The position numbers were made by a program, and so were the translations under genes. From IMG/VR virus record IMGVR_UViG_3300006736_000006: DNA of 20,000 nucleotides; one strand, given 5' to 3'. The notes under the pieces were generated by a model that worked only from the letters and a program-made list of their open reading frames with translations, was not told where the DNA came from and searched no databases. The stretch comes from an uncultured virus (IMG/VR IMGVR_UViG_3300006736_000006) (Duplodnaviria; Heunggongvirae; Uroviricota; Caudoviricetes). Below, in pieces: positions 1-16,212 of the stretch. How positions within the stretch are numbered: position 1 is the stretch's first letter; each line of letters opens with the position of its first letter.

Positions 1-273
1 CCATCCAGCAACTGCTGGGATATGAACGGTATAGATTGCAGAGTGATCACCTAATAAAATTGTCTTTCCGCTGTGAGATGCAGATAGCATACAGTCAGCA
101 CCGCTGAAACCAGATGTTCCTGGAGATACGACAACTCTCTCCTGTAGCATTCCGCCGAGAGATTGTCCATTGAGCTTTACACTTTTCTTAAACGTTGTTG
201 TACTTTGAACATCTACACCAGAACCTGCCTCCTGGACAAGTCCCTTACCATCTGTAATTGTTACCTTTGGCAT
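1..273 (-). CDS. Hypothetical protein, possibly virion-associated; runs off the left edge (3'-truncated)
   Basis: Not in the ORF track. ATG at 273 with AAAGGAG 7 nt upstream (281-287). Frame is open to base 1: MPKVTITDGKGLVQEAGSGVDVQSTTTFKKSVKLNGQSLGGMLQERVVVSPGTSGFSGADCMLSASHSGKTILLGDHSAIYTVHIPAVAGW... Confidence 0.8.
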   Translation of the reverse strand, partial: MPKVTITDGKGLVQEAGSGVDVQSTTTFKKSVKLNGQSLGGMLQERVVVSPGTSGFSGADCMLSASHSGKTILLGDHSAIYTVHIPAVAGW

Positions 274-287
274 AATCTTTCTCCTTT

Positions 288-334
288 GTCCGCATGATTC
301 CAATTCGCCGGCGGGGTCGGTTGATTATATGAAC
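288..334 (-). promoter_or_regulatory. Putative structured 5' leader (hairpin with palindromic loop) directly upstream of the RBS
   Basis: On the minus strand GUUCAUAUAAU (334-324) pairs with AUCAUGCGGAC (298-288), 9 of 11 pairs including G-U. An inner CCGA/UUGG stem encloses a loop containing the palindrome CGCCGGCG (306-313). It is a GC-rich island in an AT-rich spacer. Confidence 0.4.
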
Positions 335-394: not shown

Positions 395-1705
395 CTAAAA
401 TCCAGCGATTACAGAAATTGCTATTAGTCCAGGCAACCTTTGCTTGACATACACGCCTGAAAATAATGTATCTGTCCTTCCCCCTACATAAGAAAAAGCT
501 GCTTCAAGGTTCTTGCTCACACCTGGATTAGATGCCATCTCAGGAGTAACTATTAACAGCATCACTCCTGTTGATGCTTTTCCAGCTGGAGCAGGGCATG
601 GAGATGATTTTAAGCATCCCTGATAGAGAATTGATCCCAAATCTTGTCTGTTTACATCTCTAGCAACTGTGCTTCCAATGACCATTCTTCCTGTCGTGCT
701 AAGCACTCTCTCAAGATCCTTGGAGTCAAATGATTGTATTGGAGACGTCTCATCTGCTAGCTTCAAAACTTGCCATAGCAGCTTTGCAAAATTTCTATTC
801 GCTGAGGGATATAGGTCAAGCATTCCGACCTTTCCCCTTAGCAGCTGAAGCTGTTTCTCATTATCAATCATGATGTGTGGATGAAGAGCAACGTCAGACA
901 TTAAAGATTCATAATTTGCTGCTATTGTAGGATTGAGCAATTCCTGAGCAGTCGGTCTTGTAACAATATATACTACCTGGCCCGCTGCCTCTACTGATCT
1001 GAGGTATCTATCAAATGCTCCACCTAGAATATTGGAAGCGCTTCCTGTTCCTCCGCCGCCGCCGGCAATAACAAAAAGCCAGTCTACCTTTCCTATTCTA
1101 GTTCGAATAGCATCTTCAACAAGCGCACTATTATTTTCCAAAACCTTCTTTCCAAGTGCTATGTCTTTACCGACTCCATCAGCACCAGGCAGCAAAAGAA
1201 AATGCTCAGCCGAGACTCCCTCTGGCTGATCCTTTACAGTTGTATTTATGAGAAGAGTCTTATTAAATCCAAGATCTAGAAATGCCTTGGCGAGTTTTCC
1301 TCCCCCACCGCCGATTCCAAGAAATGCACACTTAATTGCAGATGCGGCAGAATTTTCAGGAAGCATCCTTTCATCTGCGGTAACCGGATCATCATCGTAC
1401 GCTTCAACGAAATCAAAATCATCAAAATCACCCTCATCTACTACAGGTGATTCATATTGAGAATGTTCAGGTTCTTCTTGAACATTATGACCTTCATTTA
1501 TCTGTGTGTCTGTATCTTGGTTACTCATTTGGGGCTCCTGTATTTCTTGTGGAGGCTGTCGTTGATCTTTTAACTCATTCGCAACATCCTTTAATGTCTC
1601 CTTGGCTGCTTGCTGGTAAAAGCTATCATTTACATCTGACATTATCTTATTATCCTCTTGTTGTTCATCTGCATAGAAAAAACTCGTCTTTATAGAGCTT
1701 GTCAT
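395..1705 (-). CDS. Tubulin/FtsZ-family GTPase (divergent, PhuZ/TubZ/CetZ-like) with an acidic N-terminal extension
   Basis: FLGIGGGGGK (T1 loop), LINT, GADGVGKD (T3), AGGGGGTGS tubulin signature (1040-1066), P..QE, IDNE, SFDSKDL (T7-like DxxD). An alternative start is ATG 1642 (MSDVND), with GAGGA 10 nt upstream. Confidence 0.9.
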   Translation of the reverse strand: MTSSIKTSFFYADEQQEDNKIMSDVNDSFYQQAAKETLKDVANELKDQRQPPQEIQEPQMSNQDTDTQINEGHNVQEEPEHSQYESPVVDEGDFDDFDFVEAYDDDPVTADERMLPENSAASAIKCAFLGIGGGGGKLAKAFLDLGFNKTLLINTTVKDQPEGVSAEHFLLLPGADGVGKDIALGKKVLENNSALVEDAIRTRIGKVDWLFVIAGGGGGTGSASNILGGAFDRYLRSVEAAGQVVYIVTRPTAQELLNPTIAANYESLMSDVALHPHIMIDNEKQLQLLRGKVGMLDLYPSANRNFAKLLWQVLKLADETSPIQSFDSKDLERVLSTTGRMVIGSTVARDVNRQDLGSILYQGCLKSSPCPAPAGKASTGVMLLIVTPEMASNPGVSKNLEAAFSYVGGRTDTLFSGVYVKQRLPGLIAISVIAGF

Positions 1706-1733
1706 GACATATATTACTCATTATTCCACATTT

Positions 1734-1741
1734 ATAAATAT
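1734..1741 (-). promoter_or_regulatory. Putative late-promoter motif ATATTTAT upstream of the tubulin gene
   Basis: Lies just downstream of the capsid terminator. Related 8-mers occur at 346-353, 5291-5298, 6759-6766 and 12779-12786, all intergenic and upstream of minus-strand genes. Confidence 0.4.
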
Positions 1742-1763
1742 CTAGCTGACAAACATCTATCAC

Positions 1764-1798
1764 AAATAAAAAAGGGGCGCCTCTATGAGGCGCCCCTT
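1764..1798 (-). terminator. Rho-independent terminator after the major capsid gene
   Basis: Perfect 12-bp inverted repeat AAGGGGCGCCTC-tat-GAGGCGCCCCTT (1772-1798) running into a T-rich tract (TTTTTTATTT) on the minus strand, 23 nt after the capsid stop codon. Confidence 0.92.
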
Positions 1799-1821
1799 AG
1801 TAGCTCATCTCTAAGGATATC

Positions 1822-3795
1822 TTAGATTATGTTAAGATCAAGAACCGTTACTGTTCCGTAGAAGTCAGCACGAACCATCTTCTTACCATACCGAGTCATC
1901 ACGCCCTTGCGAGGTGTGAAGTCTTCGGGGGCGAAGATAGTAGGAGTGACGATCAACGGCACGTAAGGTGCGTAGACATATCCTGTCTCAAGGTAGCTTC
2001 CACCCTTGTATCCAACTAGGACCTTATTCCGTGGGAAATAGGGATCCTTGTAAACCGTGAAACGGTTACTTAGGGAACCAATGGGTGTCGCACCAAGCGA
2101 GAATGGATTACTTGTCTGACCAGATCCATCAATAGTGATGTTGGGCTTGTAGAGCACCGAAGCCTCAAAGATCGTTGCGACCTCCGGGGAGCAAACCACG
2201 AAGTTAGCAGAACCTCTAAGGGTCTTACGGTGAATCTCATTAGCAACATCGATGATGGTCTCAACAAGAGTCTCATACCACTCACGAACTGTACCAGTGA
2301 ACTGAGGACCTGAAGCTAATGTGCTGGCCTTTGTTGCCTCAGCTGCAGTCTTCTTGTTAACGAACTTACCAGGCATACGTGACCAGTAGTAGTTAGCACC
2401 TCTCGCCTCTGTGAGAAGATCATTGAGAATCTCACGATCAATCTCTAGTGCGATCTGCTCGGAAAGGATCTGAGTTAACTCAACCTCAGCGTCAAGGCTG
2501 TGGTATGCGTTAAGATCCTGTGCGAGTTCCGGTGACCAACGAGCACGTAGCTTACGAGTCGCGGCTGTAACTGCGATTGACTCAATCTTGATGTCAATCT
2601 CAGGAATGACCGGACTTGGTGTAGCTGCGAAGTTAGACTCAAAGGTCGGAATCGTCAACACATCACCATCTGTACTATTAACACCAAGGTTAGGTGCCAG
2701 TGCATATGATGCAGTGAGGTCGGTAGACCCGTTCGCCGCTGTAGAGGGACCTGCATACGTTCCTGATACGACCATTAACAGTGCCGCATTGGCTGTTGCT
2801 GTCGTAACCAATGGTTGGGACGTGAACTGTCCACCCGAGTACGTTCCAAGCTGGTTGAGACGTCTAAGGTTAAGCACGTTCTTTCCACCCTGCCACTCAT
2901 CAGACAGAGCTGCAATAGAGTCTGCCAAGTTTGTGGGAGAGCTTTGGTTACTACCACCTGTGTTAGTTCTACTTGCTGAGAACAATGTGATGTCCTTTGC
3001 ATTAGTAAGATCAAGACCAGAAACACCACTAAGATCTGTGAGATCAAAGATTAAGAACTGGAATCGACCACTGCCAACACCTGAGGTATCTCCCTCGATC
3101 TTCGTAGTGACCTGTGGATCAAACTGAAGGTGACGTCCATCACTTCCTGTTGCAGCAGCAAGACGACCACTCTGTAACGAGGCATTACCCTGCCACGCAC
3201 CAGATGCTAGAAGTGTTAGTCTACTATTAGCAGAGGTTCCACTGATTGTCTTGTGAACCTTAGAGTAGGTAGCACCAACTAGATCATACTGACCACCGGT
3301 TGCGAGTGATCCTGATCGGACACCTTTACCTGTGGGGTTGTTATAGATTGATGTTCCCTTCTGATAGGTCTCAGCAGCAGCAGTGCCCTCAGTTCCGTCT
3401 GTGAGACTTGCATCACCACCGACGTTATCACCGTAGGTGTAATCCAGATAGAAGAGCAGACCAGAAGGAAGGCTCATTGGCTGAATAGAAACAAGCTCGT
3501 TGGATACGAGACCACCGAAGACACGACGAACGATCGGGAATGCGATATTTGTGAAGCCTCTGACGTCGCCAGAGGAGGCGAGGTTACCGCCACCTGTTGA
3601 TAGAGAGTTTTGCTCTCTCAGGAGCTGAGCAGCCTGATTTTCAAGAAGTCGAGACATGGTCTCCCGACCATGATCATGCAGGCCTCGAAGAAGTCCTGTT
3701 CGGGACCACTTTTCGACCAGTCGCATACCTTCAGCACCAATATTTCTATCTCTGATGCCTTCAGTAAGCTGATTTAGTGTGAATGACTTTGCCAT
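1822..3795 (-). CDS. gp23: Major capsid protein, T4 gp23-like, with a large internal insertion
   Basis: gp23 motifs LLENQ, FPIVRRVF, VSIQPMSLPSGLLFYL, VTAATRKLRARWSPELAQDLNAYHSLDAEVELTQILSEQIALEIDREI, GYKG, YAPYVPL, FTPRKGVMTRYG. SD AGGAG upstream. Confidence 0.97.
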   Translation of the reverse strand: MAKSFTLNQLTEGIRDRNIGAEGMRLVEKWSRTGLLRGLHDHGRETMSRLLENQAAQLLREQNSLSTGGGNLASSGDVRGFTNIAFPIVRRVFGGLVSNELVSIQPMSLPSGLLFYLDYTYGDNVGGDASLTDGTEGTAAAETYQKGTSIYNNPTGKGVRSGSLATGGQYDLVGATYSKVHKTISGTSANSRLTLLASGAWQGNASLQSGRLAAATGSDGRHLQFDPQVTTKIEGDTSGVGSGRFQFLIFDLTDLSGVSGLDLTNAKDITLFSASRTNTGGSNQSSPTNLADSIAALSDEWQGGKNVLNLRRLNQLGTYSGGQFTSQPLVTTATANAALLMVVSGTYAGPSTAANGSTDLTASYALAPNLGVNSTDGDVLTIPTFESNFAATPSPVIPEIDIKIESIAVTAATRKLRARWSPELAQDLNAYHSLDAEVELTQILSEQIALEIDREILNDLLTEARGANYYWSRMPGKFVNKKTAAEATKASTLASGPQFTGTVREWYETLVETIIDVANEIHRKTLRGSANFVVCSPEVATIFEASVLYKPNITIDGSGQTSNPFSLGATPIGSLSNRFTVYKDPYFPRNKVLVGYKGGSYLETGYVYAPYVPLIVTPTIFAPEDFTPRKGVMTRYGKKMVRADFYGTVTVLDLNII

Positions 3796-3832
3796 TTTTA
3801 TTTTTCTCCTATAATGCAGTTAATGATAAAAT

Positions 3833-5272
3833 TCACTTGATTCCGGCTAGCGTCGCCCATCTATTCACCTGATCGTCAGCTGAGTTGGCCGAAGACCGCC
3901 CAGTGACCTTAGAAGATGATCCGATAGCTCTGCGAACCGAAGATTCATTCATTGATCCTGACTTGCCCTTATCAAAGGATTCCGTCAGGCTCCTGTAAAG
4001 TAGCTTTACTTCTCTCAAGCTTCTAGCATTGTCAATGGACTCAACAACCGACTTTCTCTGAGCCGGTGTTATTTCCTTGCTTTGCAGAAGCTTATTTACA
4101 TAAAGAAGCTTAGCATTAAACAGGTTTAGATCTGTCAACTGCTCACGAAGTGTTTCAACAGCACCTCTGTATTCCTTGAGCCTCACCGAGAGAGATCGAT
4201 TATTACGTCTCTCATTTCTAAGTTGTTCTGAAAGAACATTTAACTTAACTTGTAGAGGATCCTTTCCAGGTTTTCCTCCTCCGAAATCTGCGCCTCTTGG
4301 CATCTTACCACCAGAGCCGCCATAAGAATTCTTTACACCAGACTTTCCAGAGCCTTTTCCGCCCCAGCTATCTTGCATGTCGCTCTTTATTCCCTTAATC
4401 TTTGTGAGATCCTTGGCTTCAGAAAGATGCTGTCTGAGACGAACTAGCTCGCTACGAAGAATCTTTTCGTCGATCTCAAATACTTCATCAAGACCTTCAA
4501 AATCCTCCAGCTCAATATCCACCTCTTCTTCTTCTTCAGGAGCCTCTGCAGCCTCAAGATCTTCTTCAGACTCCTCTTCCTCTTCTTCGACTACTCGAAT
4601 AGTAGGCATGAGGTCCTCTGGAATCTCGAGATCACCTAAGTCTATCTCTAGCCTTGCCTCATCAAGACTATTAAGTCCTAGCATTGACATAATTTCCTTG
4701 ATTTCTTGTGCCTCTGCTTTATCAATTGCATCCATGTTATCTCCAGATTTGAGCGTCTCTAGCTCAGAAAGATCAATTTCGTAAAGATTGTCATCATTCT
4801 TAGACGACAAATCATTGTTTGGATTATCATCCATATGACTACTTATTCTCTGTGAATCAAAAAGATCATCACTTTCACTAAGTTTATCAGCCATTTTTAA
4901 AAGTTTTTCTCGACTGTCGCCGTCGAGTTCAGATATTGATTCTTTAATTGCATCCCTAACTACGTCCTTGTCAGACACGCTCTTGAAATCATCAGCTCCA
5001 AAAAGATTCAATAATGCAGACATTGCACTATCATCTAAAATAACTTCACTATTAGATTCTGAAAGATCTGATCCAACTATCTCAGAGGCAACGTCCTGTA
5101 ATACATCTTCATTTGAACCATCATCAGAGGACTCTCCAATTAACTGCTCTTCTATAAACTCTCTTATCTTTGGAGTAACTGCTTCAATAATAGCATTTTT
5201 GGCATTCTTTTCCGCTGTATCTCTTAACAGCTTCGCCTCTGCTATCGCTTCCTCATAAAGAGATTTTGACAT
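3833..5272 (-). CDS. Prohead core/scaffolding protein (gp22 position)
   Basis: Immediately upstream of the capsid gene. Very acidic, with a C-terminal coiled coil (LREQLTDLNLFNAKLLY), a terminal RWATLAGIK and many L/I-x-E motifs. Start moved from 5290 to ATG 5272 (MSKSLYEE) because GAGGA lies 7 nt upstream. Confidence 0.75.
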   Translation of the reverse strand: MSKSLYEEAIAEAKLLRDTAEKNAKNAIIEAVTPKIREFIEEQLIGESSDDGSNEDVLQDVASEIVGSDLSESNSEVILDDSAMSALLNLFGADDFKSVSDKDVVRDAIKESISELDGDSREKLLKMADKLSESDDLFDSQRISSHMDDNPNNDLSSKNDDNLYEIDLSELETLKSGDNMDAIDKAEAQEIKEIMSMLGLNSLDEARLEIDLGDLEIPEDLMPTIRVVEEEEEESEEDLEAAEAPEEEEEVDIELEDFEGLDEVFEIDEKILRSELVRLRQHLSEAKDLTKIKGIKSDMQDSWGGKGSGKSGVKNSYGGSGGKMPRGADFGGGKPGKDPLQVKLNVLSEQLRNERRNNRSLSVRLKEYRGAVETLREQLTDLNLFNAKLLYVNKLLQSKEITPAQRKSVVESIDNARSLREVKLLYRSLTESFDKGKSGSMNESSVRRAIGSSSKVTGRSSANSADDQVNRWATLAGIK

Positions 5273-5297
5273 TATTGATCCTCTTCTCAATTAAATA

Positions 5298-5981
5298 TTA
5301 TGTATTTTGTGAATTTGCATGTAGCGTTTCATCAATTTTATTGAAAAGCCTAAGCAATCTAATTCTCTGCCTTAAAATAGATCTCTCTGTGGGATCGAGA
5401 TTAAAAATATCGTCCCATCCCATATTCTCTAAATCTTCATCTTCTAAATAGTCAATGGGTGCTCTAGAACTACCATACTGTGTTCCGGCACCGCCCACTT
5501 TTCCTGGACCAGTTGTATTAAATGCTTGACCTGCACCTCCAGTTCCAAGCGGAGGACCATCAAATCCATTTGGATACAATGTTCTATGAGAAAATGGAGC
5601 TATTCCACTCATCACAGCCGGCATATTATCAGACTCAGAAAGGTTTCCTATATCCCATCTCTGGAGACCAACCATGCTCCCCCTGTCTGCAGATCCTCTT
5701 CTTCCGACCTGCGGGTCTATTGCAAGGCGATCTCTACCAGTAACTGCGCTAACCTTTGATATTAATTCCATCTCATCTTCATCGATATCCTCAATAAAAT
5801 CATCCTCATATTCTTCATATGAAGTTGGCATCTTATATATTCCTGTTTCTGCCCAGCCCATAGATGTCTCTGACCCTAGACCTGTCCCAAAGCTAGGAAT
5901 TTTTTGTCCCTTTCCATAGCCATGACCTATCCTTTGATCAGAATTTGCAGTTGAAGGATTATAGTAAAGTCTGGTTGCCAA
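5298..5981 (-). CDS. Hypothetical Gly/acidic low-complexity protein in the head module
   Basis: 227-aa ORF with TTG start preceded by AGGGGA, tightly packed and co-oriented with neighbours. Confidence 0.75.
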   Translation of the reverse strand: MATRLYYNPSTANSDQRIGHGYGKGQKIPSFGTGLGSETSMGWAETGIYKMPTSYEEYEDDFIEDIDEDEMELISKVSAVTGRDRLAIDPQVGRRGSADRGSMVGLQRWDIGNLSESDNMPAVMSGIAPFSHRTLYPNGFDGPPLGTGGAGQAFNTTGPGKVGGAGTQYGSSRAPIDYLEDEDLENMGWDDIFNLDPTERSILRQRIRLLRLFNKIDETLHANSQNT

Positions 5982-5986
5982 AGAAA

Positions 5987-6478
5987 TTATCCCCTACCGT
6001 CAGATCCCTGATACGACCTTCCAGAAATATAATCACCCAACTTTTGGTCTGCTATATTTTCTGAAGTCTTAGAGGGAGATACTGTTCCTCCTAGTCCAGA
6101 CCCGAACTCTGGAGCAGATCCATCCGGTAGTTCTCCTGTATATTCTGGTTGATCAGCAGGAAATACGCTTCCTGGACCGGGAGATGAAAGATTTGGAACG
6201 TATGGAGAGGCAGGCTTTCCTCCGCCTCCTGTTTCAACATCTGATAGATCAGGTGCATTAGAAAAATCTCTATTAAATGAATTTAATCCCAGACCTCCCA
6301 CAACCGTTCCATCTAGTGCTAGTTCTTGAAAAACTTCTTTTCTTTCATCGTCATTTACATCACCAGCGTAAATTGGAGATGCTGAAAATGATGCTCGTAA
6401 ATTTATACCGTTTCTAGATCCGTATGGCTTATCATCAGATGCAGCCGGTTCAACTATTGTCTGTGGTTGGTCAGCCAT
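5987..6478 (-). CDS. Hypothetical Pro/Gly/Ser/Asp-rich protein, possibly a head-associated structural protein
   Basis: 163 aa, ATG with AAGGA SD, motif PASPYVPNLSSPGPGS, 1-nt gap to the upstream gene. Confidence 0.8.
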   Translation of the reverse strand: MADQPQTIVEPAASDDKPYGSRNGINLRASFSASPIYAGDVNDDERKEVFQELALDGTVVGGLGLNSFNRDFSNAPDLSDVETGGGGKPASPYVPNLSSPGPGSVFPADQPEYTGELPDGSAPEFGSGLGGTVSPSKTSENIADQKLGDYISGRSYQGSDGRG

Positions 6479-6479
6479 T

Positions 6480-6731
6480 CTATAATTCCTTTAAAAGTCT
6501 TATTTTGAGAATATTTCTAGCTTTTGTAATTCTGTTTGCTCTTCTACGAAGCGTAGATTCTCTTAGGCCAAGAGCTTTAACATAATCAATTTTATTAACT
6601 AGGTTGTCACCACCCGCCCACGCATCATCAACAGTGTCAGAGGATAACAATCCCTCTTTTTCTAATTTCTTCTTTTCTTCGATAACTATTTTTCTAAGAA
6701 CAGCCGGTGTTAATGTAGTGTGTCTTGACAT
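6480..6731 (-). CDS. Small hypothetical head-module protein
   Basis: ATG 6731 (MSRHTTLTPAVLRKIVIEE) with GGAG upstream; contains DAWAGGDNLVNKIDY and a basic C-terminal helix. Confidence 0.75.
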   Translation of the reverse strand: MSRHTTLTPAVLRKIVIEEKKKLEKEGLLSSDTVDDAWAGGDNLVNKIDYVKALGLRESTLRRRANRITKARNILKIRLLKEL

Positions 6732-6794
6732 ATGATCTCTCCACAAAGTGTCTCAATCATACATATTATGTAATGAAAGAATTAGCTACTCACA

Positions 6795-7268
6795 TTAAGA
6801 TCTTTTTGCTGTCGTAGCGAACGCTAAATCTGCCCATTTTTGTGCAGACTCACCGAATAATTCCTGCGGGTCTGATTTAGATGCTACCACAGCTGCTACA
6901 TCTCCGGATGCAGCAGTTGGTAGAGATGATCCCCCGGGTCCTGGCCTCTCAGCTCCTGCCTGTTCTTGCAGTGTCGTCATTGCAGTATCAGCCAGTATCG
7001 ACGATAAGACTGGATCGGCTGTCATACTTCTTGTCGTTTCTCTTATATTTTTTTCAAAATTAGGATTTGGAATTTCATCTTTTTGTGAAGTCTTATTATA
7101 AACTATATTATCAAGCCCAGCTCTTCTATTCACGCTCTGGCTTCTAGATTCGGATCTTACTGATTCTGATATCTGTACCTCTCTATGCTCTCCGATTCCT
7201 TCGCTTAATATCTCTATTAGGCATTCCTTTACTATTCCCTTTAATTTACTTCTAGCAGCTCTAGACAT
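6795..7268 (-). CDS. Hypothetical protein downstream of the prohead protease (possible core protein)
   Basis: ATG 7268 with AGGT upstream (TTG 7271 is an alternative). Motifs LKGIVKECLIEILSEG, ISE-S and KWADLAF. Confidence 0.8.
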   Translation of the reverse strand: MSRAARSKLKGIVKECLIEILSEGIGEHREVQISESVRSESRSQSVNRRAGLDNIVYNKTSQKDEIPNPNFEKNIRETTRSMTADPVLSSILADTAMTTLQEQAGAERPGPGGSSLPTAASGDVAAVVASKSDPQELFGESAQKWADLAFATTAKRS

Positions 7269-7277
7269 CAAATTTAC

Positions 7278-7886
7278 CTACCACGACAATATATCATTAA
7301 AAATTCTATCTATTTTATCTGTTTTGGTAAAATTTTTATCAACATCACCGGGGTTTATAGTCTTTCCTTCACTTATCATAAATGCTCCAGGTGTAGAGGG
7401 TTCACTAACCATATCAAAACAAATCAATTGAAAATCTTCCTGGACAACCTGCCTATCTCCGTCGTTTCTAGTAGAGCCCACACCTCTAGAAGAAATTCCA
7501 AGTGTTACACCAGATTCAACGAGACTTTGAAGTATTTGTCCAGCGGGTGTATTAAGTAGCTCAACATGCCCAACAACAGAATCACCCTCTATGTGTGCTT
7601 CTCGGACTATATGTGAAACATTTTTCAGTTCTACCACCGAGGAATCCGGATGATCACATTCACCGAGCGCTCGATTCTCTTTAATAAATTTTTGATAATT
7701 TAGCATCTCTCGCTCTAATATAGATCTGGGATAAACCCTTCCATTCTGATTTAAAGTGTCACATTTTTGTAATACACCTCTTAGAACTATCTTTCCATCG
7801 TTTTTTTCACGAGACTCTTTAATCATATTAGATGTATAAGATAGAGGAGTCCACTCAGTCAAAAGTTTTAATTTAAAATCACTCAT
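7278..7886 (-). CDS. gp21: Prohead core protease, T4 gp21-like
   Basis: GVLQ..DTLNQNGRVYP, ALGECDHP (catalytic His), LGISSRGVGS (catalytic Ser), FDMVSEPS. SD GGGAGG. Confidence 0.95.
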   Translation of the reverse strand: MSDFKLKLLTEWTPLSYTSNMIKESREKNDGKIVLRGVLQKCDTLNQNGRVYPRSILEREMLNYQKFIKENRALGECDHPDSSVVELKNVSHIVREAHIEGDSVVGHVELLNTPAGQILQSLVESGVTLGISSRGVGSTRNDGDRQVVQEDFQLICFDMVSEPSTPGAFMISEGKTINPGDVDKNFTKTDKIDRIFNDILSW

Positions 7887-8736
7887 ATATCGCCTCCCTT
7901 AATTCTCTCTTTAGTTGAATTAATGTTAAGAACCTGGCTATAGACTCATCATTCATTTCATTTATTGATTCATCATTAATTCTCTGTCTAACTGAATCAA
8001 TTTTCTCTAATAAGAAGCCATTATCTGTCTTTTTCTCAAATTCATTTAAACTATTAAGTGTCTGATCTTTAATATTTTGAACTTTTTCTAATATAGATGT
8101 TCCACCGTCATGTGACATTGAAAAGACATATGACCGTATAATATCTCTCTGTTCTGAACAGAAATTATTTTTATACTTTTCATTAATTTTTTCTGTCATT
8201 ATTTTTACAACAAGCGAATCAACGTCATGATCTATATTCTCTTCTATTGTTTGACATTTATCTTTTTCAGATAACATTCTTTCTATAACTTTTGATTCAT
8301 ACTGTACAGTTCTTGAAAGATCTGATCTATCGTTTGATCTCCAGTCATTGAGCAGCGTCTGGATTGTCGCATAAACTTGGTATTCTGGAACTCTCCTATG
8401 ATAGAACATCTTGTCGTCTAGAGTGTGATTTATTTCTTTAATAAGAAGAGATTTTTCCCTATCTAGTTTTCTAGAATCACACCTTCTCGCTGCTGATTTT
8501 GCCTCTGTTAAAATTGCAGCTGCAACAGCAGAATCACTTACAGTTGACTTAATTAGTGCATTAAAAAGCCGGAACTCTCTATAGAGCTCGCTGTCCTTGT
8601 TAAATCTAGATTCAATAATTTTAAGCGTTCTCTTGGCTGACTTCTTATCTCCCTGAATTAACAGGTTTGAAATGTTTCTAAGAAGCAGCTCATAGATTAT
8701 TCCAACATTTCTTTTTTTATTATGATTCCTCGGCAT
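7879..8736 (-). CDS. Helical hypothetical protein between portal and protease
   Basis: 285 aa starting HNKKRNVGIIYELL. Overlaps the portal stop and the protease start, suggesting translational coupling. Confidence 0.8.
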   Translation of the reverse strand: MPRNHNKKRNVGIIYELLLRNISNLLIQGDKKSAKRTLKIIESRFNKDSELYREFRLFNALIKSTVSDSAVAAAILTEAKSAARRCDSRKLDREKSLLIKEINHTLDDKMFYHRRVPEYQVYATIQTLLNDWRSNDRSDLSRTVQYESKVIERMLSEKDKCQTIEENIDHDVDSLVVKIMTEKINEKYKNNFCSEQRDIIRSYVFSMSHDGGTSILEKVQNIKDQTLNSLNEFEKKTDNGFLLEKIDSVRQRINDESINEMNDESIARFLTLIQLKRELREAIYE

Positions 8737-10750
8737 CGGGTATGCTTCCCTCCTCTGATGAATTTATCTCAGAGATTATAATCCCTTTATTACTTATCCT
8801 GCTCTCAAGTGATTTTAATGTAGATCTTATCTGTGATGTCATTTGTGTGTGATTTTTTATCTTTTCATTAAAGAAATTTGATAAAAATTCATCTTCTGTC
8901 AATTTTGGAATTTTTGCTACATTTCTAAGCGGGTTTTTAGAGTCACTGTTTCTTTGATATTGGGCATTTTTTCTTCCAAATGGATGAAAAAGAGAGTCTG
9001 ATGCATCCTTTCTATCATGACTATGATCTGGTGCCATTTGTGGAGATCTTCTTCTTCTAGGTGAGTTCCATATCACCTCTTTCTCTGCCGGCGTTAACTC
9101 TTTATCCTCCTCATCATCGTCGTCGTCTTCATCATCGACTATGACCTCAGATAATCTATCAACAGTATTTTGAGCCCTTATGGGTGCATTAACATCTGAT
9201 ATGGATAGGCCCGATATATCTATGCTTTCATCTCCTGTTAAAAGGCCTAGCTGATCCTTATTTCTTGTGTCACCTGCCAGTTCCATTTCTGCTGGTACGG
9301 GTTCCTCAACTGCTGCGTCTGCGATTGCCTCTTCTTCTGCACCCGGTAGTCGAACTGCTTCAATTTCCAGATCTTGTTCTTTATCTACAATTCTCTGATC
9401 AAGAATCTGATCAAGAACCTCATCTGTCATATTAAAGATATTCTTTCTTATCCAGTCTCTACTAACAAGCCCCTCAACACCCACGGCAGATGTAGCTATT
9501 TCGAATCTTGTTCTATATAATTCCAGCTTCTGCTGTTGTGCAATTGTAGAAGGATTTGATAATTGAAGAGTAAAATCAAGAATATCCTCTCCCTCAAATC
9601 CATTACAATATAAGTGTATTATTGCCAGCTTATTTAACTCAGCTACAACAGTTCTTTGAATCCTTGCGATCGTCCTAGAAAATCTAATATCCTCTTGAGA
9701 TAGTGTTGCTTTTGCTCCCAGACCTTCATCATATCCAAGATATGCTTTTGGAATTTTTAATGCTGCAAATAGCTTTTTCTGTATATATTCAACATCTTCT
9801 ATGGCAGTAGCATTTGCTCCTCCAGCAAGAGTGTCAATCTTAGTTCCTGAAGAATCACCTCTCACAGGAAGGTAATAATCTTCATCAACAGAAAGTGGAT
9901 TATATCTAAGATCAACTCTTCCTGTATCTTTATCTACGACCTGTGCTTTCTTTAATGTGGCTTGTACCTGCTCCATATAGTTTGGAATATCCTCTGGCGG
10001 AACATTTCCAACATCTATATAGAAAACTCTTCTTTCAGGAGACCTAACTACCCTGTAAACAAGCATTGCGTCCTCTACAAGAATAAGCTGTCTCCAGATT
10101 CTTCTTGCTGCCTCGAGAACAGATGACCCATAAGGTAAAAATGCATCATTGCCCAGAATTCTCATATGACAAACTTGCCAATTTTCAAGAACCTGATTCC
10201 CCTGAGTAACCCACCTGAACCTCACTGCCATGGGATCTAGTGGATCAAACCCCTCTTCTCTCTCTACCTCATTTACAGGAATTGGAAACGCATTAATTAC
10301 GCCGTGGTCTGGAGATACATCATTGAATAAAAAGAAATCTCCGTACTTACAAAGATTTCTAACCCATGCTGTCAAATTAAATTCCACATTTAAAGTATCA
10401 TAAAATAATTCATCAAGTAATCTTTGAATCGTTGGATTTTCTGAATATATGTGAAGGACTGATCCTTTTTCATCTGCAGAAACTGTCTCCTCAGCGTATA
10501 TGTCTAGAGCTGAACTTATCTCTGGTGTATATTCCATCTCAGAGAAGTCTGAATATCTAGCCATCCTATCATATGTTCCATATGCACTCATTGCTGTGCT
10601 ATAGACATGGCTCTGGGTCTTTCTAAAGACCTCGAATGCAGACGTTTGCTTGGATGACTTGCTAAAGTCACGTACCTTTCTCTTTATGACAGGCCCGCTT
10701 CTAAACAGCTGTGTTAGACGTCTAAATAATGTTTGGCTTTCCTGTGCCAC
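8720..10750 (-). CDS. gp20: Portal protein, T4 gp20-like, with a long C-terminal extension
   Basis: MEYTPEISSALDI, EDAMLVYRVVRSPERRVFYIDVGNVP, EDYYLPVRG, IDTLAGG, IEDVEYIQKKLFAALKIP, EDIRFSRTIARIQ. GTG start with GAGGA SD. Confidence 0.96.
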   Translation of the reverse strand: MAQESQTLFRRLTQLFRSGPVIKRKVRDFSKSSKQTSAFEVFRKTQSHVYSTAMSAYGTYDRMARYSDFSEMEYTPEISSALDIYAEETVSADEKGSVLHIYSENPTIQRLLDELFYDTLNVEFNLTAWVRNLCKYGDFFLFNDVSPDHGVINAFPIPVNEVEREEGFDPLDPMAVRFRWVTQGNQVLENWQVCHMRILGNDAFLPYGSSVLEAARRIWRQLILVEDAMLVYRVVRSPERRVFYIDVGNVPPEDIPNYMEQVQATLKKAQVVDKDTGRVDLRYNPLSVDEDYYLPVRGDSSGTKIDTLAGGANATAIEDVEYIQKKLFAALKIPKAYLGYDEGLGAKATLSQEDIRFSRTIARIQRTVVAELNKLAIIHLYCNGFEGEDILDFTLQLSNPSTIAQQQKLELYRTRFEIATSAVGVEGLVSRDWIRKNIFNMTDEVLDQILDQRIVDKEQDLEIEAVRLPGAEEEAIADAAVEEPVPAEMELAGDTRNKDQLGLLTGDESIDISGLSISDVNAPIRAQNTVDRLSEVIVDDEDDDDDEEDKELTPAEKEVIWNSPRRRRSPQMAPDHSHDRKDASDSLFHPFGRKNAQYQRNSDSKNPLRNVAKIPKLTEDEFLSNFFNEKIKNHTQMTSQIRSTLKSLESRISNKGIIISEINSSEEGSIPDAEES

Positions 10751-12791: not shown

Positions 12792-13109
12792 TCATTCAAA
12801 AATAAAAAATGAAGATGCCTGTTTTATTATTTCTTTATGAGATAAAACTTCCTCATCTGACGGTCTCCAGCCTGATAACCACTTTTCTCTCATAGGTTCA
12901 GCCCATTTCATTCCACATTCAGAACAACACTTGAATCTTCTAATATAACTATAATCATCCGCTGTATTCATTGTAATTTGGCATACTGGACAAAATAGAT
13001 AAGATTTTTCTTCTCTATCTTCTGTTATTATCACAAACTTATCTCTATACTCATATTTCTTTCCCGAGCTTGATTCTTTAAGGATGGGAAACTTTTGTAT
13101 TTTTTTCAT
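12792..13109 (-). CDS. Small Zn-finger protein
   Basis: CPVC ... CCSEC, then WAE...W..GWRP. ATG with GGAG SD; overlaps the 3' end of the SbcCD fusion by 32 nt. Confidence 0.75.
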   Translation of the reverse strand: MKKIQKFPILKESSSGKKYEYRDKFVIITEDREEKSYLFCPVCQITMNTADDYSYIRRFKCCSECGMKWAEPMREKWLSGWRPSDEEVLSHKEIIKQASSFFIFE

Positions 13110-16100
13110 TCTTAATTATCTCCAAAGAGTTGTCTACTATATCTTTAATTTCATCCACATGAGATATTATTATAATATTTCTAAACCATTTTTTAAGAGA
13201 CTCTAATAGTCTACTGCATGCAGCGATATTTGTCTCATCAAGTGCACCAAATCCCTCATCAATAATTAGCATGTTCGTCTTAGTTAATGATGATACATTA
13301 ATGAGAGCAACTCTTATTGCAAGAGAAGACATCATCTTCTCCATTCCAGAGGCTAGTTCAATAACCCTTCTACTATCTCCGTAATCTATAAAAACATCCA
13401 TCGCATTTGTATCTATGTCTGCCTCTAGCTCAACAGTAAACCCCACAACACCTTGTAAAATTCTTGAAATTTCAGCATTAATTAAGGGAAGCTGTGACAT
13501 CATTATCTGAAGAGGTATACCTTTCTTAGACACAGCTTGCATAAAAAGATCATATGTTCTTAAATCTATCTTGACTTTTTCAAATTCTTTTCTCTTATTT
13601 TCCATATCAGAGACCTGGACTCTAAGGCTTGCCACATCTTCAAATAGACCTAATCTTTTCTTATCAATTCTTTGTATCTCATCTTCTAGAAGTATTATAT
13701 TTGATCTAATAACTGATGCTGGATTTTCTTCATCCCTAACTAGCCTAGATGACATGCCATCTAAAATAGAAGATTCTCTTGACAGGCTTGATTCTAGCTG
13801 GCCCATCTCATTTTCAATATTATTATGTCTAACTATCAATGATGAGATTTGAACAGATAAATCTGACTGTTTTTTAATCATTGCGTTGTATTTTTTAATT
13901 TTTTTCTCAACATTCTCACTTAAAATTGATTCAAAGGATATCTTTGCATCTCTTAAGGATGAAATAGATCTTTGTACTACCTCTCTCTGATCATTTATTA
14001 TCTTCTTATCTCTATGTGAATCTTTAATAAATTTACAAGTTGGAAACTTGTCTCCACAAGGAACCTCTCCTAATTTTTTGATGGAGCCCACTTGGCGATC
14101 AAGCTCTCTTTTATTTTTTTCAAGCTGATGATCTAAATCAATAACTGCTCTATCAAGTTCTTTTTGAATCTCAATCTTCATCTGTAGATCTTTTATAGAA
14201 AAGTCTGACTTTACCTGTTCTATTTTTGAATATCTTTTTTGCCTTAAAGCCACCTCACTGGTGATCTCTTCTTCCTTGTCTTTTAAGCTTTCTATATCTT
14301 TTTTATATCTTGAAACTATTTTTTTCTGGGCTTTGAGTTCTGACACTGTTATGATATCCGGATTGTCGGATGTAGCTAATTGAATATTGAGATCCTTTAG
14401 TGTGGTTCTTTTTTCAAATATATCTTTTTCAAGCAGCTCTATCTTCTCATCATTTTCAATTAAATAAAACTTAATATTATCAATTTCCTCATCCCAGTCT
14501 ATATCTGGATATGATTTTACTTTATTTCTTATATCATATGACTCTATCTTTGCTATTTCGTGCATCTTTTCAAACACACCCAGGTCGAGAAATTTTGTTA
14601 AAATCATTTTTCTTGATGTGGCGCCTTCTTTAACAAAAGTGCTCATCTCCCCTTGAGATGCTAGCGATGTCATTAAGAAATCATCAGCTGTCCCAATAAG
14701 CTTTCTTAGAATCTTTTCTGTTTCTCTTCTTTGCTCCTCAGTGATATCCTCCTCGATATCTCCCAAATTATTTAATTTGTATAGATTTAAAGAAGTTGAT
14801 GCATAAATCTCTCCCTTTCTTGTCTGGTGTTTTATTGTTGATCTTATGATCCTATAGGGGTCACCATTTAAATTTATATCAACTACAGCCCTGGCGCTAT
14901 TTTTTCTATTATTGATTATGTGAATATTTTTAATAGATCCTCTATCTGTTGTATTAAATAGACCATACATCAATGATCCAATTATAGATGACTTTCCTTT
15001 TGCATTTTTTCCAAAAATACCTGTTATCCCAGGAAGATTTTCAAAATTAACAATATTTTCATTTCCATACGAGAATAAGTTATCAAATCCCAGTGAATTA
15101 ATTTCCCACCTGGTGTTTCTTAGAGTATCTTCTTCCCTCGTCACCTGTGACATGTATTTTTCTATTAGCTCATCAAATTTTTCAAAATATTTTTCATTTA
15201 ATTTTCCATCTCTGTAGTACTCTCTAATTAATTTTTTATGAGTCTTTCCATCTCTAAGATTCTCCTTATTAAATGTTCCAGAGGCTGTCTTTATCTTGGA
15301 CGCATCAAATGTTGACTCTGACTTGAAGACTACCTCTGTGGCCTCTTTGACTCTCATTAGCTCATATTGTAATTGCTTACTATCTGCCTGAGCTATAACA
15401 CTATCTGATTTTACTCTAAACCTTGAACAATTGGGATATTTGTCAGCTTCATCTAGTGTCTTTTCAACAGATCCCTTCCAGCATATTGTTATAAATGGAT
15501 TCAAATGTTGTATTTCATAAAATTTGCTATTAAATGAGTTTTTATTTTCAATATCCCAGAATAAAAATCCTTTTCCTGTATCTTCACCATAATTTTGCTG
15601 TATAGATGATCCGCAGTATGCTATAGTTTTTTTATTGTCTAAATACTGTCTTTTGTGTATGTCTCCTAGAAGTGTGAAATCAAAATCACTAAAAAAATCA
15701 ACAGTTATATCTCCATCTATCTCCCAGTTAATATCAGTTGTTGAACCCCACACAGCACCATGAAATAATGCAATATTTATTTCGCCTTCAATAGGTTTAA
15801 CATTCTGCCATCCTTCCTCATCAAAACATGAAAAAACACACCAATTATATCCAGGAATACCTGTCGGATATGTTCCTGACCTTTTATAAAGAAAGATATT
15901 TGGATCATCTAATGCAGAGAGTATGGGAGATATCGCATCTTGTCTATCTGTATTGTGTTGTAATCCATCGTGGTTACCAAGAATGACATGCACAGGTGCT
16001 ATCCTAGACATCTCTGTAAACCACCAACAGAGACTGTCTATCAGCTCTGGAGATATCCCTTGGGTCTTACTGTGTACAATATCACCCCCAAGATAAATTA

Positions 16101-16212
16101 CATCTGGAGACAACTCTCTTATCTTTTCAAAGGCGTCAGAAAATGACTCTTTATACTCACTATGACGAGACAGCCCCCTCCAGTGAATATCAGCTAAATG
16201 AACAATTTTCAT
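13078..16212 (-). CDS. Fused Mre11/SbcD nuclease - Rad50/SbcC ATPase (T4 gp47-gp46 equivalent)
   Basis: N-terminal phosphoesterase motifs ADIH, GGDIVH, GNHD, FHG, GDIH, YCGS. Then Walker A GKNAKGKSS, Q-loop LASQGE, a coiled coil with central CGDKFPTC, signature ASGME, Walker B/D-loop LIIDEGFGALD and H-loop ISH. One uninterrupted 1044-aa ORF. Confidence 0.95.
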   Translation of the reverse strand: MKIVHLADIHWRGLSRHSEYKESFSDAFEKIRELSPDVIYLGGDIVHSKTQGISPELIDSLCWWFTEMSRIAPVHVILGNHDGLQHNTDRQDAISPILSALDDPNIFLYKRSGTYPTGIPGYNWCVFSCFDEEGWQNVKPIEGEINIALFHGAVWGSTTDINWEIDGDITVDFFSDFDFTLLGDIHKRQYLDNKKTIAYCGSSIQQNYGEDTGKGFLFWDIENKNSFNSKFYEIQHLNPFITICWKGSVEKTLDEADKYPNCSRFRVKSDSVIAQADSKQLQYELMRVKEATEVVFKSESTFDASKIKTASGTFNKENLRDGKTHKKLIREYYRDGKLNEKYFEKFDELIEKYMSQVTREEDTLRNTRWEINSLGFDNLFSYGNENIVNFENLPGITGIFGKNAKGKSSIIGSLMYGLFNTTDRGSIKNIHIINNRKNSARAVVDINLNGDPYRIIRSTIKHQTRKGEIYASTSLNLYKLNNLGDIEEDITEEQRRETEKILRKLIGTADDFLMTSLASQGEMSTFVKEGATSRKMILTKFLDLGVFEKMHEIAKIESYDIRNKVKSYPDIDWDEEIDNIKFYLIENDEKIELLEKDIFEKRTTLKDLNIQLATSDNPDIITVSELKAQKKIVSRYKKDIESLKDKEEEITSEVALRQKRYSKIEQVKSDFSIKDLQMKIEIQKELDRAVIDLDHQLEKNKRELDRQVGSIKKLGEVPCGDKFPTCKFIKDSHRDKKIINDQREVVQRSISSLRDAKISFESILSENVEKKIKKYNAMIKKQSDLSVQISSLIVRHNNIENEMGQLESSLSRESSILDGMSSRLVRDEENPASVIRSNIILLEDEIQRIDKKRLGLFEDVASLRVQVSDMENKRKEFEKVKIDLRTYDLFMQAVSKKGIPLQIMMSQLPLINAEISRILQGVVGFTVELEADIDTNAMDVFIDYGDSRRVIELASGMEKMMSSLAIRVALINVSSLTKTNMLIIDEGFGALDETNIAACSRLLESLKKWFRNIIIISHVDEIKDIVDNSLEIIKNEKNTKVSHP

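Follow-up and report, generated by a model that had tools for sequence, protein, structure and literature searches.

Tubulin-like proteins of phages are known from two settings, PhuZ serving the phage nucleus and TubZ in plasmid-prophage partition, in the available parts of two papers (PMC7950403, PMC13282480). In those parts, TubZ and PhuZ are named as two phage subgroups (PMC7950403), and the second paper, a 2026 review, treats tubulin solely as PhuZ (PMC13282480). The available text of a comparative genomic study of jumbo phages credits the family with 'two distinct representatives', for which phiKZ and c-st are cited (PMC7824862). That of a marine jumbo-phage survey reports tubulin in the phiKZ-like cluster only, with 0 mentions of FtsZ (PMC9123017), and that of a paper on huge phages describes PhuZ homologues and transfer-messenger RNAs (tmRNAs) (PMC7162821). 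Here we analysed a stretch of 20,000 nucleotides (the window) from the uncultured-virus record IMGVR_UViG_3300006736_000006 of IMG/VR, in which a gene for an FtsZ/TubZ-like protein begins 116 bases downstream of a gp23-type capsid gene. We give a probability of roughly 0.7 to the reading that this gene encodes a functional, self-polymerising FtsZ/TubZ-like GTPase and that it represents a large, virus-only family of uncultured marine T4-like jumbo myoviruses without a phage nucleus.

Sequence motifs, fold and family of the FtsZ-like protein

Residue conservation was assessed in two alignments, a broad one of 45 sequences (A1) and a closer one of 27 sequences (A2). The gene and the parts of its product that bear on the assignment are located in the window as follows (pLDDT, predicted local distance difference test).

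395..1705, minus strand: FtsZ/TubZ-like GTPase gene, 436 amino acids, complete, a monocistronic-looking cassette (open reading frame (ORF), family and fold evidence)
398..1345, minus strand: predicted two-domain FtsZ/tubulin fold, residues 121-436, with GTPase domain, helix H7 and C-terminal activation domain (pLDDT; VIA alignments span 121-436)
1295..1318, minus strand: T1 loop GIGGGGGK, residues 130-137 (sequence; G132, G133 and G135 invariant in A2)
1040..1066, minus strand: T4 signature AGGGGGTGS, residues 214-222 (sequence; G217, G219, G221 and S222 invariant)
716..730, minus strand: T7 loop FDSKD, residues 326-330, which holds both catalytic aspartates (counterpart of LDFAD in the FtsZ alignment)

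A first-pass annotation of this DNA had reported a full tubulin/FtsZ motif set, and T1, T4 and the T7 DxxD were confirmed by the sequence and the alignments. The T7 aspartates D327 and D330 were invariant in 45/45 sequences of A1, whose 17 invariant columns (at 24-90% identity) also include G132, G135, G217, G219, G221 and N282. Residues P251, E255 and N282 align to FtsZ T5 and T6. The protein thereby combines the T1-T6 GTP-binding loops, the T7 acidic pair and, in the model, the two-domain fold by which the superfamily is recognised. Judged by its loops and modelled fold, it is a genuine phage-encoded member of the FtsZ/tubulin superfamily with predicted GTPase activity.

The AlphaFold2 model, calculated from 45 sequences, had a mean pLDDT of 85.5, and from about residue 111 its block means were 90-98. 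A Foldseek search of the PDB with this model returned CetZ (3zid, 9.4e-21) as the best match, followed by Staphylococcus aureus FtsZ (7.8e-20) and TubZ (4ei7, 9.2e-19). With VIA-align, the highest scores were obtained for TubZ 4ei7 (Z 32.4, root-mean-square deviation (rmsd) 2.3 over 308 residues) and CetZ2 4b45 (Z 32.2), followed by TubZ-Bt 2xka (Z 31.3), c-st TubZ 4xcq (Z 29.0) and FtsZ (Z ~28-29), with an overall rmsd of 2.3-3.3 over 290-308 residues. These structural scores were nearly tied: the fold is certain, and structure leaves the subfamily undecided. PhuZ structures were not among the best 50 VIA-align matches, which is an absence from that list and not proof of differing folds. At the sequence level, phmmer against PDB sequences matched S. 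aureus FtsZ (7e-10), CetZ 3zid (5e-6), c-st TubZ (3e-4) and RepX (0.04), and gave no PhuZ match even at E<=10. The Pfam Tubulin profile (PF00091) scored the protein at 22.9 bits, below the curated cut-off of 33 bits. Among three full-length family representatives, P0123 scored 33.2 bits and P0121 24.6 bits, and P0122 was unmatched. With such sub-threshold scores, annotation pipelines and surveys probably miss the family.

Selection on the gene was estimated by the Nei-Gojobori method, as the ratio of nonsynonymous to synonymous substitution rates (dN/dS). For the core of the protein, dN/dS was 0.011 against the homologue at locus L009 (dS 0.72, 220 codons) and 0.089 against that at L073; the corresponding values for the first 93 residues were 0.42 and 0.17. 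The FtsZ-like core is hence under very strong purifying selection. Across the superfamily, the active site of a subunit is completed by T7 of the adjacent one. The strict conservation of T7 here implies head-to-tail polymerisation with assembly-dependent hydrolysis, and the protein would form head-to-tail, GTP-dependent filaments as do superfamily members with an intact T7 loop.

A word-indexed protein search scored 8000 candidates, of which 995 reached E<=1e-3. The 120 closest of these 995 were 62-89% identical, came from marine or other metagenomes on contigs of up to 288 kb, and bore no name beyond the automatic 'cell division GTPase FtsZ'. An exhaustive search of 50%-identity representatives gave 640 matches at E<=1e-3, three of them full-length family members (71, 44 and 41% identity) and many others unnamed at 25-36% identity. 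When 80 unnamed relatives were scanned, they matched Pfam Tubulin, often together with TubZ-like_C (PF22453) or Tubulin_2, and 0/80 matched FtsZ_C. Five of the distant relatives (P0222, P0270, P0245, P0220 and P0226) include two with LAGLIDADG-endonuclease inteins inside the GTPase domain, one PilM/FtsA-type actin-fold fusion and two with an AAA+ lid domain.

In IMG/VR, 27 loci carry the family. In 185,579 species-representative prokaryote genomes there were 4 loci only, all on contigs of 2.7-8.2 kb from metagenome-assembled genomes (MAGs), 3 of Flavobacteriales and 1 of Hyphomonadaceae; most simply, these are phage DNA co-binned with cells. Neighbour clusters in the ESM Atlas were 87-100% viral, which we take as a lead only. 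A tblastn search of 50,697 cultured-phage records gave no match at 1e-3, and the phage G protein gp138, discussed below, was reached via distant relatives and direct pairwise comparison. No published description of the family was found in a literature search that left subscription journals and bioRxiv supplements outside its scope. The family is thus large, virus-only and apparently undescribed.

Comparison with PhuZ, phage G and FtsZ

Two maximum-likelihood trees (LG+C20 with posterior mean site frequencies, quick search) were calculated from 85 and 41 rows. The references were FtsZ from Escherichia coli, two Flavobacteriales MAGs and one Hyphomonadaceae MAG, TubZ of c-st, and PhuZ of phiKZ and 201phi2-1; phage G gp138 was included in the second tree only. 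The family was monophyletic on a long stem, with support of 97 and 91 in the Shimodaira-Hasegawa-like approximate likelihood ratio test (SH-aLRT), and the FtsZ sequences formed a separate clade (support 100). Both c-st TubZ and phage G gp138 were long branches within a broad unnamed radiation. In both trees PhuZ attached beside the family on the longest branches, a placement flagged as possible long-branch attraction.

Comparison of the family profile with single sequences by hhalign gave 97.7% (1.5e-12) for phage G gp138, 96.3% (1.9e-9) for E. coli FtsZ and 95.8% (6.5e-9) for c-st TubZ, but only 0.1% (0.58) for phiKZ PhuZ, which argues against a real link to PhuZ. The pairwise BLASTP values were 1e-15 for phage G gp138, 7e-9 for c-st TubZ, 0.003 for E. 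coli FtsZ and 0.058 for phiKZ PhuZ. In BFVD, two entries led: 'FtsZ cell division GTPase [uncultured Caudovirales phage]' at 8.3e-22, then a 'cell division protein' from a member of the Myoviridae at 6e-18. The PhuZ hits lagged behind the top entry by about 10 orders of magnitude, that of phage Noxifer scoring 8.2e-12. The PhuZ profile phrog_4733 did not match the window protein at E<=0.01, compared with 4.6e-118 for phiKZ PhuZ itself. Based on these sequence comparisons, we regard the family as a distinct viral clade that is neither nested in PhuZ nor a recent capture of host FtsZ. The first-pass annotation had suggested that this may be a separate phage system and had asked for a phylogeny as the check; the trees and the profile comparison support the separation.

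PhuZ (phiKZ gp039, 201phi2-1 gp59) resembles the window protein in being a stand-alone tubulin of a jumbo phage, and it is the working model for the use of a tubulin by a lytic phage. It differs in that it co-occurs with chimallin and a multisubunit RNA polymerase. Neither the chimallin profile (phrog_4795) nor that of the phiKZ-type RNA polymerase beta subunit (phrog_2987) matched in any of four related records (0/4 in each case; records 37-75% complete), and both detected the phiKZ positive control. A direct search with phiKZ gp054 gave no match in 5 records. The first-pass annotation had recognised no chimallin gene in the window, and within the limits of these incomplete records the related phages do not appear to form a nucleus. 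Since related records of 185-255 kb were 71-75% complete, the genome size is about 260-340 kb, which makes these phages jumbo T4-like myoviruses.

Among proteins of cultured phages, gp138 of Bacillus phage G, a 'putative FtsZ-like cell division protein', is the nearest (BLASTP 64 bits, 25% identity over 225 residues). It shares the motifs IIDNEK...GK and FDxxDL with the window protein, and phage G resembles the window lineage in being a jumbo myovirus without a phage nucleus in which the gene stands alone. However, gp138 has no N-terminal extension, carries a C-terminal helical or basic region of roughly 130 residues, and lies in the broad unnamed radiation outside the marine family. It corresponds to the FtsZ/tubulin-like GTPase ps43 of PMC12484599, which was not detected by proteomics according to the available part of that paper.

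Bacterial FtsZ and archaeal CetZ share with the window protein the two-domain fold, the T1-T7 loops and the catalytic Asp pair. The likeness to CetZ, which was not in the trees, is structural (the 3zid and 4b45 matches above). Bacterial FtsZ differs by its identity of only ~20-27%, by the presence of FtsZ_C and a C-terminal linker and peptide, and by falling in a clade apart from the family for all four FtsZ sequences. These comparisons bear on an alternative in which the protein manipulates host division or cell shape, either co-assembling with or capping host FtsZ or forming a competing ring, such that arrested division keeps the cell large for the burst. Many phages target FtsZ. The best PDB sequence matches were indeed bacterial FtsZ, the profile alignment to E. 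coli FtsZ extended over 213 columns including H7 and T7, and no DNA-binding partner gene accompanies the gene. We nevertheless consider this alternative unlikely, given the low identity, the separation in the trees from FtsZ of Flavobacteriales, Hyphomonadaceae and E. coli, and the lack of both an FtsZ_C match and a C-terminal peptide for binding FtsA or ZipA. Moreover, simple capping would not need a strictly conserved catalytic T7, and known phage division inhibitors are small peptides. The first-pass annotation had raised a division-blocking FtsZ mimic as one option, and none of the results favours it specifically.

The N-terminal extension and a possible filament

The region that precedes the GTPase domain consists of two parts.

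1427..1705, minus strand: residues 1-93, a fast-evolving, mostly disordered N-terminal extension (pLDDT, alignment, dN/dS)
1352..1426, minus strand: residues 94-118, a conserved acidic-aromatic peptide, DDFDFVEAYDDDP...D..LLP.N, directly before the GTPase domain (A2, 27 sequences)

The extension begins with a short conserved leader, followed by one predicted helix (residues 28-48) and an acidic, P/Q-rich linker; outside the helix, block-mean pLDDT over residues 1-93 was 43-55. The leader comprises the first 6-8 residues, which are conserved family-wide as M-[ATP]-S-[ST]-[VI]-K, and this conservation in relatives supports the start codon. In A2, the linker was long in the subclade of the window protein and short in others. 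The acidic-aromatic peptide, which in the window protein includes DDFDFVEAYDD, had F97, F99, L115 and N118 invariant in A2, and D98, V100, A102, Y103, D104 and P116 conserved at >=90%. A protease site at FVE/AY was considered and dropped, as the Glu is not conserved and is M, N or D in P0121-P0123 (A2).

No other ORF of the contig was found to share the leader. In a related phage seen at two loci (L010:7559-7876, plus strand, equal to L030:3555-3872), a lysine-rich ORF of 105 amino acids lies between the capsid gene and the FtsZ-like gene. It starts with MPSSVRK, and the FtsZ-like protein of that phage starts with MPSTVRR, a common leader.

At its other end, the FtsZ-like protein does not extend past the final beta strand of its C-terminal domain (...LPGLIAISVIAGF) and does not match FtsZ_C (PF12327) at E<=0.01. 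It consequently lacks anything equivalent to the linker and C-terminal peptide of FtsZ or to the C-terminal tails of TubZ and PhuZ. In PhuZ, an acidic C-terminal peptide with a hydrophobic end follows a flexible linker (...IDADDNVDEDGMVV, ...LDVDDQATSSGLVFD), whereas the acidic peptide of the window protein is at the N-terminus. The acidic tail of PhuZ is needed for filament assembly, and the window protein is without a C-terminal tail. By analogy, we infer that the N-terminal acidic-aromatic peptide is a functional equivalent of these C-terminal tails. Carried on its flexible linker, it would substitute for the tail of FtsZ, TubZ or PhuZ in contacts with a partner or between subunits.

A lytic, nucleus-less jumbo phage would make a cytomotive filament. 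By analogy with PhuZ, the filament might organise the infected cell, for example by placing phage DNA or assembly sites, and it would probably serve neither plasmid-prophage partition nor the host divisome. The full proposal is tentative, and we hold it at less than even odds: nucleus-less marine T4-like jumbo phages may build a tubulin-type cytoskeleton in which the tail has moved to the N-terminus, DDFDFVEAYDD acts as an inter-subunit 'knuckle' or as a cargo adaptor, and the filament positions DNA or particles.

Genomic setting of the gene and its implications

The window is part of a single viral contig of 37,991 bp (CheckV completeness ~14%), and every gene in it is on the minus strand. 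In transcription order, the contig encodes RuvC, primase, a fused Mre11-Rad50, TerL, a T4-type portal, an S77 prohead protease, an acidic scaffold-like protein, the capsid protein, the FtsZ-like protein, gp13- and gp15-like neck proteins, two giant tail-sheath paralogues, tail tube and baseplate hub. The features that flank the FtsZ-like gene are listed below.

1822..3795, minus strand: gp23-type major capsid protein gene, 657 amino acids (Pfam Gp23 PF07068 4.3e-78; phrog_138 'major head protein' 4.7e-73)
1762..1798, minus strand: intrinsic terminator after the capsid gene, with a 12-bp stem, a 3-nt loop and a T-run (hairpin analysis)
1729..1741, minus strand: AT-rich promoter-like motif ATATTTATAAATG, about 23 nt upstream of the ATG (motif match; function putative)
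1..303, minus strand: start of a strain-specific downstream ORF, 199 amino acids in the full contig (no Pfam or PHROG match; singleton in neighbour clustering)

The Gp23 match and the spacing of 116 bases establish the location beside a gp23-like capsid gene. The closest capsid proteins of cultured phages, at 45-47% identity, are those of Flavobacterium phage immuto (47%) and Microcystis phage Mel-JY01. Compared with the Pfam Gp23 profile, the capsid protein has a Gly/Ser/Thr/Ala-rich insertion of about 260 residues, roughly residues 110-378, and its best-matched stretch (378-647) corresponds to profile positions 105-355. The insertion region is the GC peak of the window (0.48-0.49 vs 0.32-0.42 elsewhere).

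Homologues of the FtsZ-like gene were found in two genomic contexts. In the first, the capsid gene follows the scaffold gene, and 0-3 variable ORFs, the FtsZ-like gene, 0-4 variable ORFs and the gp13-like neck gene come next; this arrangement persists at FtsZ-like protein identities as low as 59%. In the second (L008, L016-L025; 67-73% identity), the gene lies among non-structural genes, with neighbours that include tRNA nucleotidyltransferase, polynucleotide kinase, HD hydrolase, peptide deformylase, a sigma factor, GroEL, an exonuclease, ribonucleotide reductase, DnaB, UvsX and PhoH. Phages with the second context belong to the same lineage, as their capsid protein is 68% identical over its full length in a genome search and 63-64% identical by tblastn. 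In one of them (G001), ~75 kb separate the capsid and FtsZ-like genes, and the capsid gene has the gp13-like gene as its immediate downstream neighbour.

To remove ascertainment bias, the junction between capsid and neck genes was also surveyed starting from the capsid protein, whose relatives are encoded by at least 604 contigs of IMG/VR. The 80 best loci, 62-100% identical by tblastn, were taken; 28 of them had too little downstream DNA, which left 52 informative loci. The FtsZ-like gene followed the capsid gene in 10/52. A further 33/52 led from capsid to neck without it, either directly (10/52) or through a gap filled with other genes (23/52), and 9/52 had neither an FtsZ-like nor a gp13-like gene in the flank. 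The other cargo at this junction (L054-L133) amounted to 1.1-4.7 kb of genes in the 23/52 loci. The capsid-neck junction thus serves as a site for variable cargo, which occasionally includes the FtsZ-like gene. Because related phages carry the gene elsewhere in the genome, its location behind the capsid gene is incidental.

These counts bear on the proposal of the first-pass annotation that the gene is coupled to head assembly, against which it had set, beforehand, a loss of synteny with gp23. Synteny was not conserved, and the coupling is not supported. A related alternative is that the protein is associated with the head, being made late and guiding procapsids, or being packaged through its N-terminal leader and delivered to the next cell. 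The position between capsid and neck genes in the window and in 10 of the 52 loci would fit this idea, as would the late-promoter-like motif upstream and the family-wide leader. Yet the synteny is absent from 33 of the 52 loci, the gene is 75 kb away in sister phages, the leader recurs on no other ORF of the contig, and the Glu of FVE-AY is not conserved. We rank this alternative last among the readings considered here, as highly improbable.

The earlier claim of a terminator between the two genes was verified: the hairpin at 1772-1798 (minus strand) has a perfect 12-bp stem with 9 GC pairs and is followed by TTTTTATTT. Its position is conserved in L004/L005 and L009. The accompanying candidate late promoter is a sequence motif, ATATTTATAAATG, which matches the T4 late-promoter consensus TATAAATA at 7/8 positions. 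Conservation speaks for it: 'ATATTTATA(A/T)' lies just upstream of the gene in L004/5, L009, L015, L008 and L016/25, covering both genomic contexts. In 296 kb of related DNA, 7/14 occurrences of the motif were intergenic, though intergenic sequence made up 8.6% of the total, and 3/7 of these lay directly upstream of an FtsZ-like homologue. On the other hand, TATAAATA is not enriched in the window (2 observed vs 1.74 expected by chance), and a sigma-70-type scan gave 8 sites vs 10.2 expected, so that the element is left as a motif only. It is a candidate promoter that may travel with the gene. With an upstream region of its own, bounded by the terminator, the FtsZ-like gene forms an independent cassette. 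Elsewhere on the contig, outside the window (~12880-12960, minus strand), a second terminator-like hairpin (AGGCGACTTTTAAGTCGCCT and a T-run) is followed by CATATAAATG and precedes an ORF of 92 amino acids; its layout of terminator, then TATAAATG, is like that upstream of the FtsZ-like gene.

Among the neighbours at 16 loci, no gene was conserved across contexts and none was TubR-like, and no iterons or tandem repeats were found within 4-6 kb of the gene. The first-pass annotation had likewise recognised no TubR-like gene in the window. This absence bears on TubZ, the polymerising GTPase of Bacillus plasmids of the pBtoxis/pXO1 type and of phage c-st, which like the window protein is borne on a mobile element and which gave the best VIA superposition. 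It differs in having TubR, a centromere and a C-terminal tail, none of which was found here. The corresponding alternative is a TubZ-like filament that would partition the phage genome as an extrachromosomal element in a pseudolysogenic or carrier state, the role that TubZ has in Clostridium phage c-st. Besides the structural match to 4ei7, the BLASTP match to c-st TubZ and the TubZ-like_C domain of distant relatives speak for it. PF22453, however, did not match the window protein at E<=0.01 (nor did PF21493), although many 27-36%-identical relatives match these domains. With its structural and replication module, the genome also resembles that of a lytic T4-type phage, and no integrase or partition genes were found in the 38-kb contig (~14% of the genome). 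Together with the missing neighbours, repeats and tail, this makes TubZ-like partition very improbable in our view.

The downstream ORFs of the contig (199 and 92 amino acids) had no family match and no homologues at other loci. At L025, a ParA/MinD identity was rejected for the ORF that follows the homologue, which is a P-loop kinase of the zeta-toxin/AAA_33 type. An HD hydrolase and a tmRNA gene recurred in the non-structural context only. In that context, the tmRNA gene was directly upstream of the FtsZ-like gene in 4/6 loci scanned and adjacent in a fifth.

L025:9464-9808, plus strand: tmRNA gene upstream, beside the FtsZ-like gene
L021:8185-8539, plus strand: tmRNA gene upstream, beside the FtsZ-like gene
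L022:5350-5706, plus strand: tmRNA gene upstream, beside the FtsZ-like gene
L008:5725-6130, plus strand: tmRNA gene upstream, beside the FtsZ-like gene
L020:11897-12276, minus strand: tmRNA gene next to the FtsZ-like gene

The tag peptides of these tmRNAs (ANNNNHFEYALAA, ANDNVEFDYALAA, ANNNDNYDYALAA and ANNNNYELALAA) begin with AN and end with ALAA, which looks proteobacterial and not Bacteroidota-like. This conflicts with the co-binning in Flavobacteriales MAGs.

Several other features of the contig were recorded. At 13078-16212 (minus strand) of the window, one ORF of 1044 amino acids fuses a Mre11/SbcD-type metallophosphoesterase (residues 1-190) to a Rad50/SbcC-type SMC ATPase (phrog_77 1.4e-47; SMC_N; SbcC Walker B). 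The T4 equivalents are two separate genes, gp47 and gp46. Outside the window, at positions 3060-6098 and 6134-9322 of the contig (minus strand; L001), there are tandem, very large tail-sheath paralogues of 1012 and 1062 amino acids. Both match phrog_23 in their C-terminal thirds only, and the pair is kept in related loci. Between the prohead protease and the capsid gene (window 3833-7271, minus strand), five ORFs of 158, 88, 163, 227 and 485 amino acids had no family match. The longest is extremely acidic, with a coiled-coil-like C-terminus, and is a probable scaffold; the other four, rich in Gly, Pro and Ser, may be prohead core or internal proteins. A single base at 10733, inside the 5' end of the portal ORF (8720-10750), distinguishes the window from the genome record.

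Several points weigh against reading the protein as a self-polymerising GTPase of a distinct family that organises the infected cell. Polymerisation is a prediction from the intact T7 and nucleotide-binding loops, and the Pfam Tubulin score of the protein is under the curated cut-off. A distant sister relationship of the family to PhuZ is possible, and the trees were built without sequences of CetZ, archaeal FtsZ, Bacillus TubZ and BtubA/B. The role given to the N-terminal peptide is pure inference, with an AlphaFold2 block-mean pLDDT of ~50-52 at residues 91-110. Finally, the FtsZ-like gene was present in 0/4 other large capsid-related fragments (38-52% complete); it may accordingly be accessory, which would weaken the case for an essential organising role.

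The interest of the family rests on its abundance (~1000 homologues), its virus-only distribution, its swapped tail and its presence beyond the nucleus-forming phages. Its sub-threshold Pfam score has probably hidden it from surveys. As a natural 'tail-swapped' architecture, it is useful for understanding the tails of the tubulin family. The family would add a third setting for phage tubulins, the T4-like jumbo phages of the ocean without detected chimallin, and, if the proposed filament is real, virus-encoded cytoskeletal organisation of the cell would not be tied to the phage nucleus.

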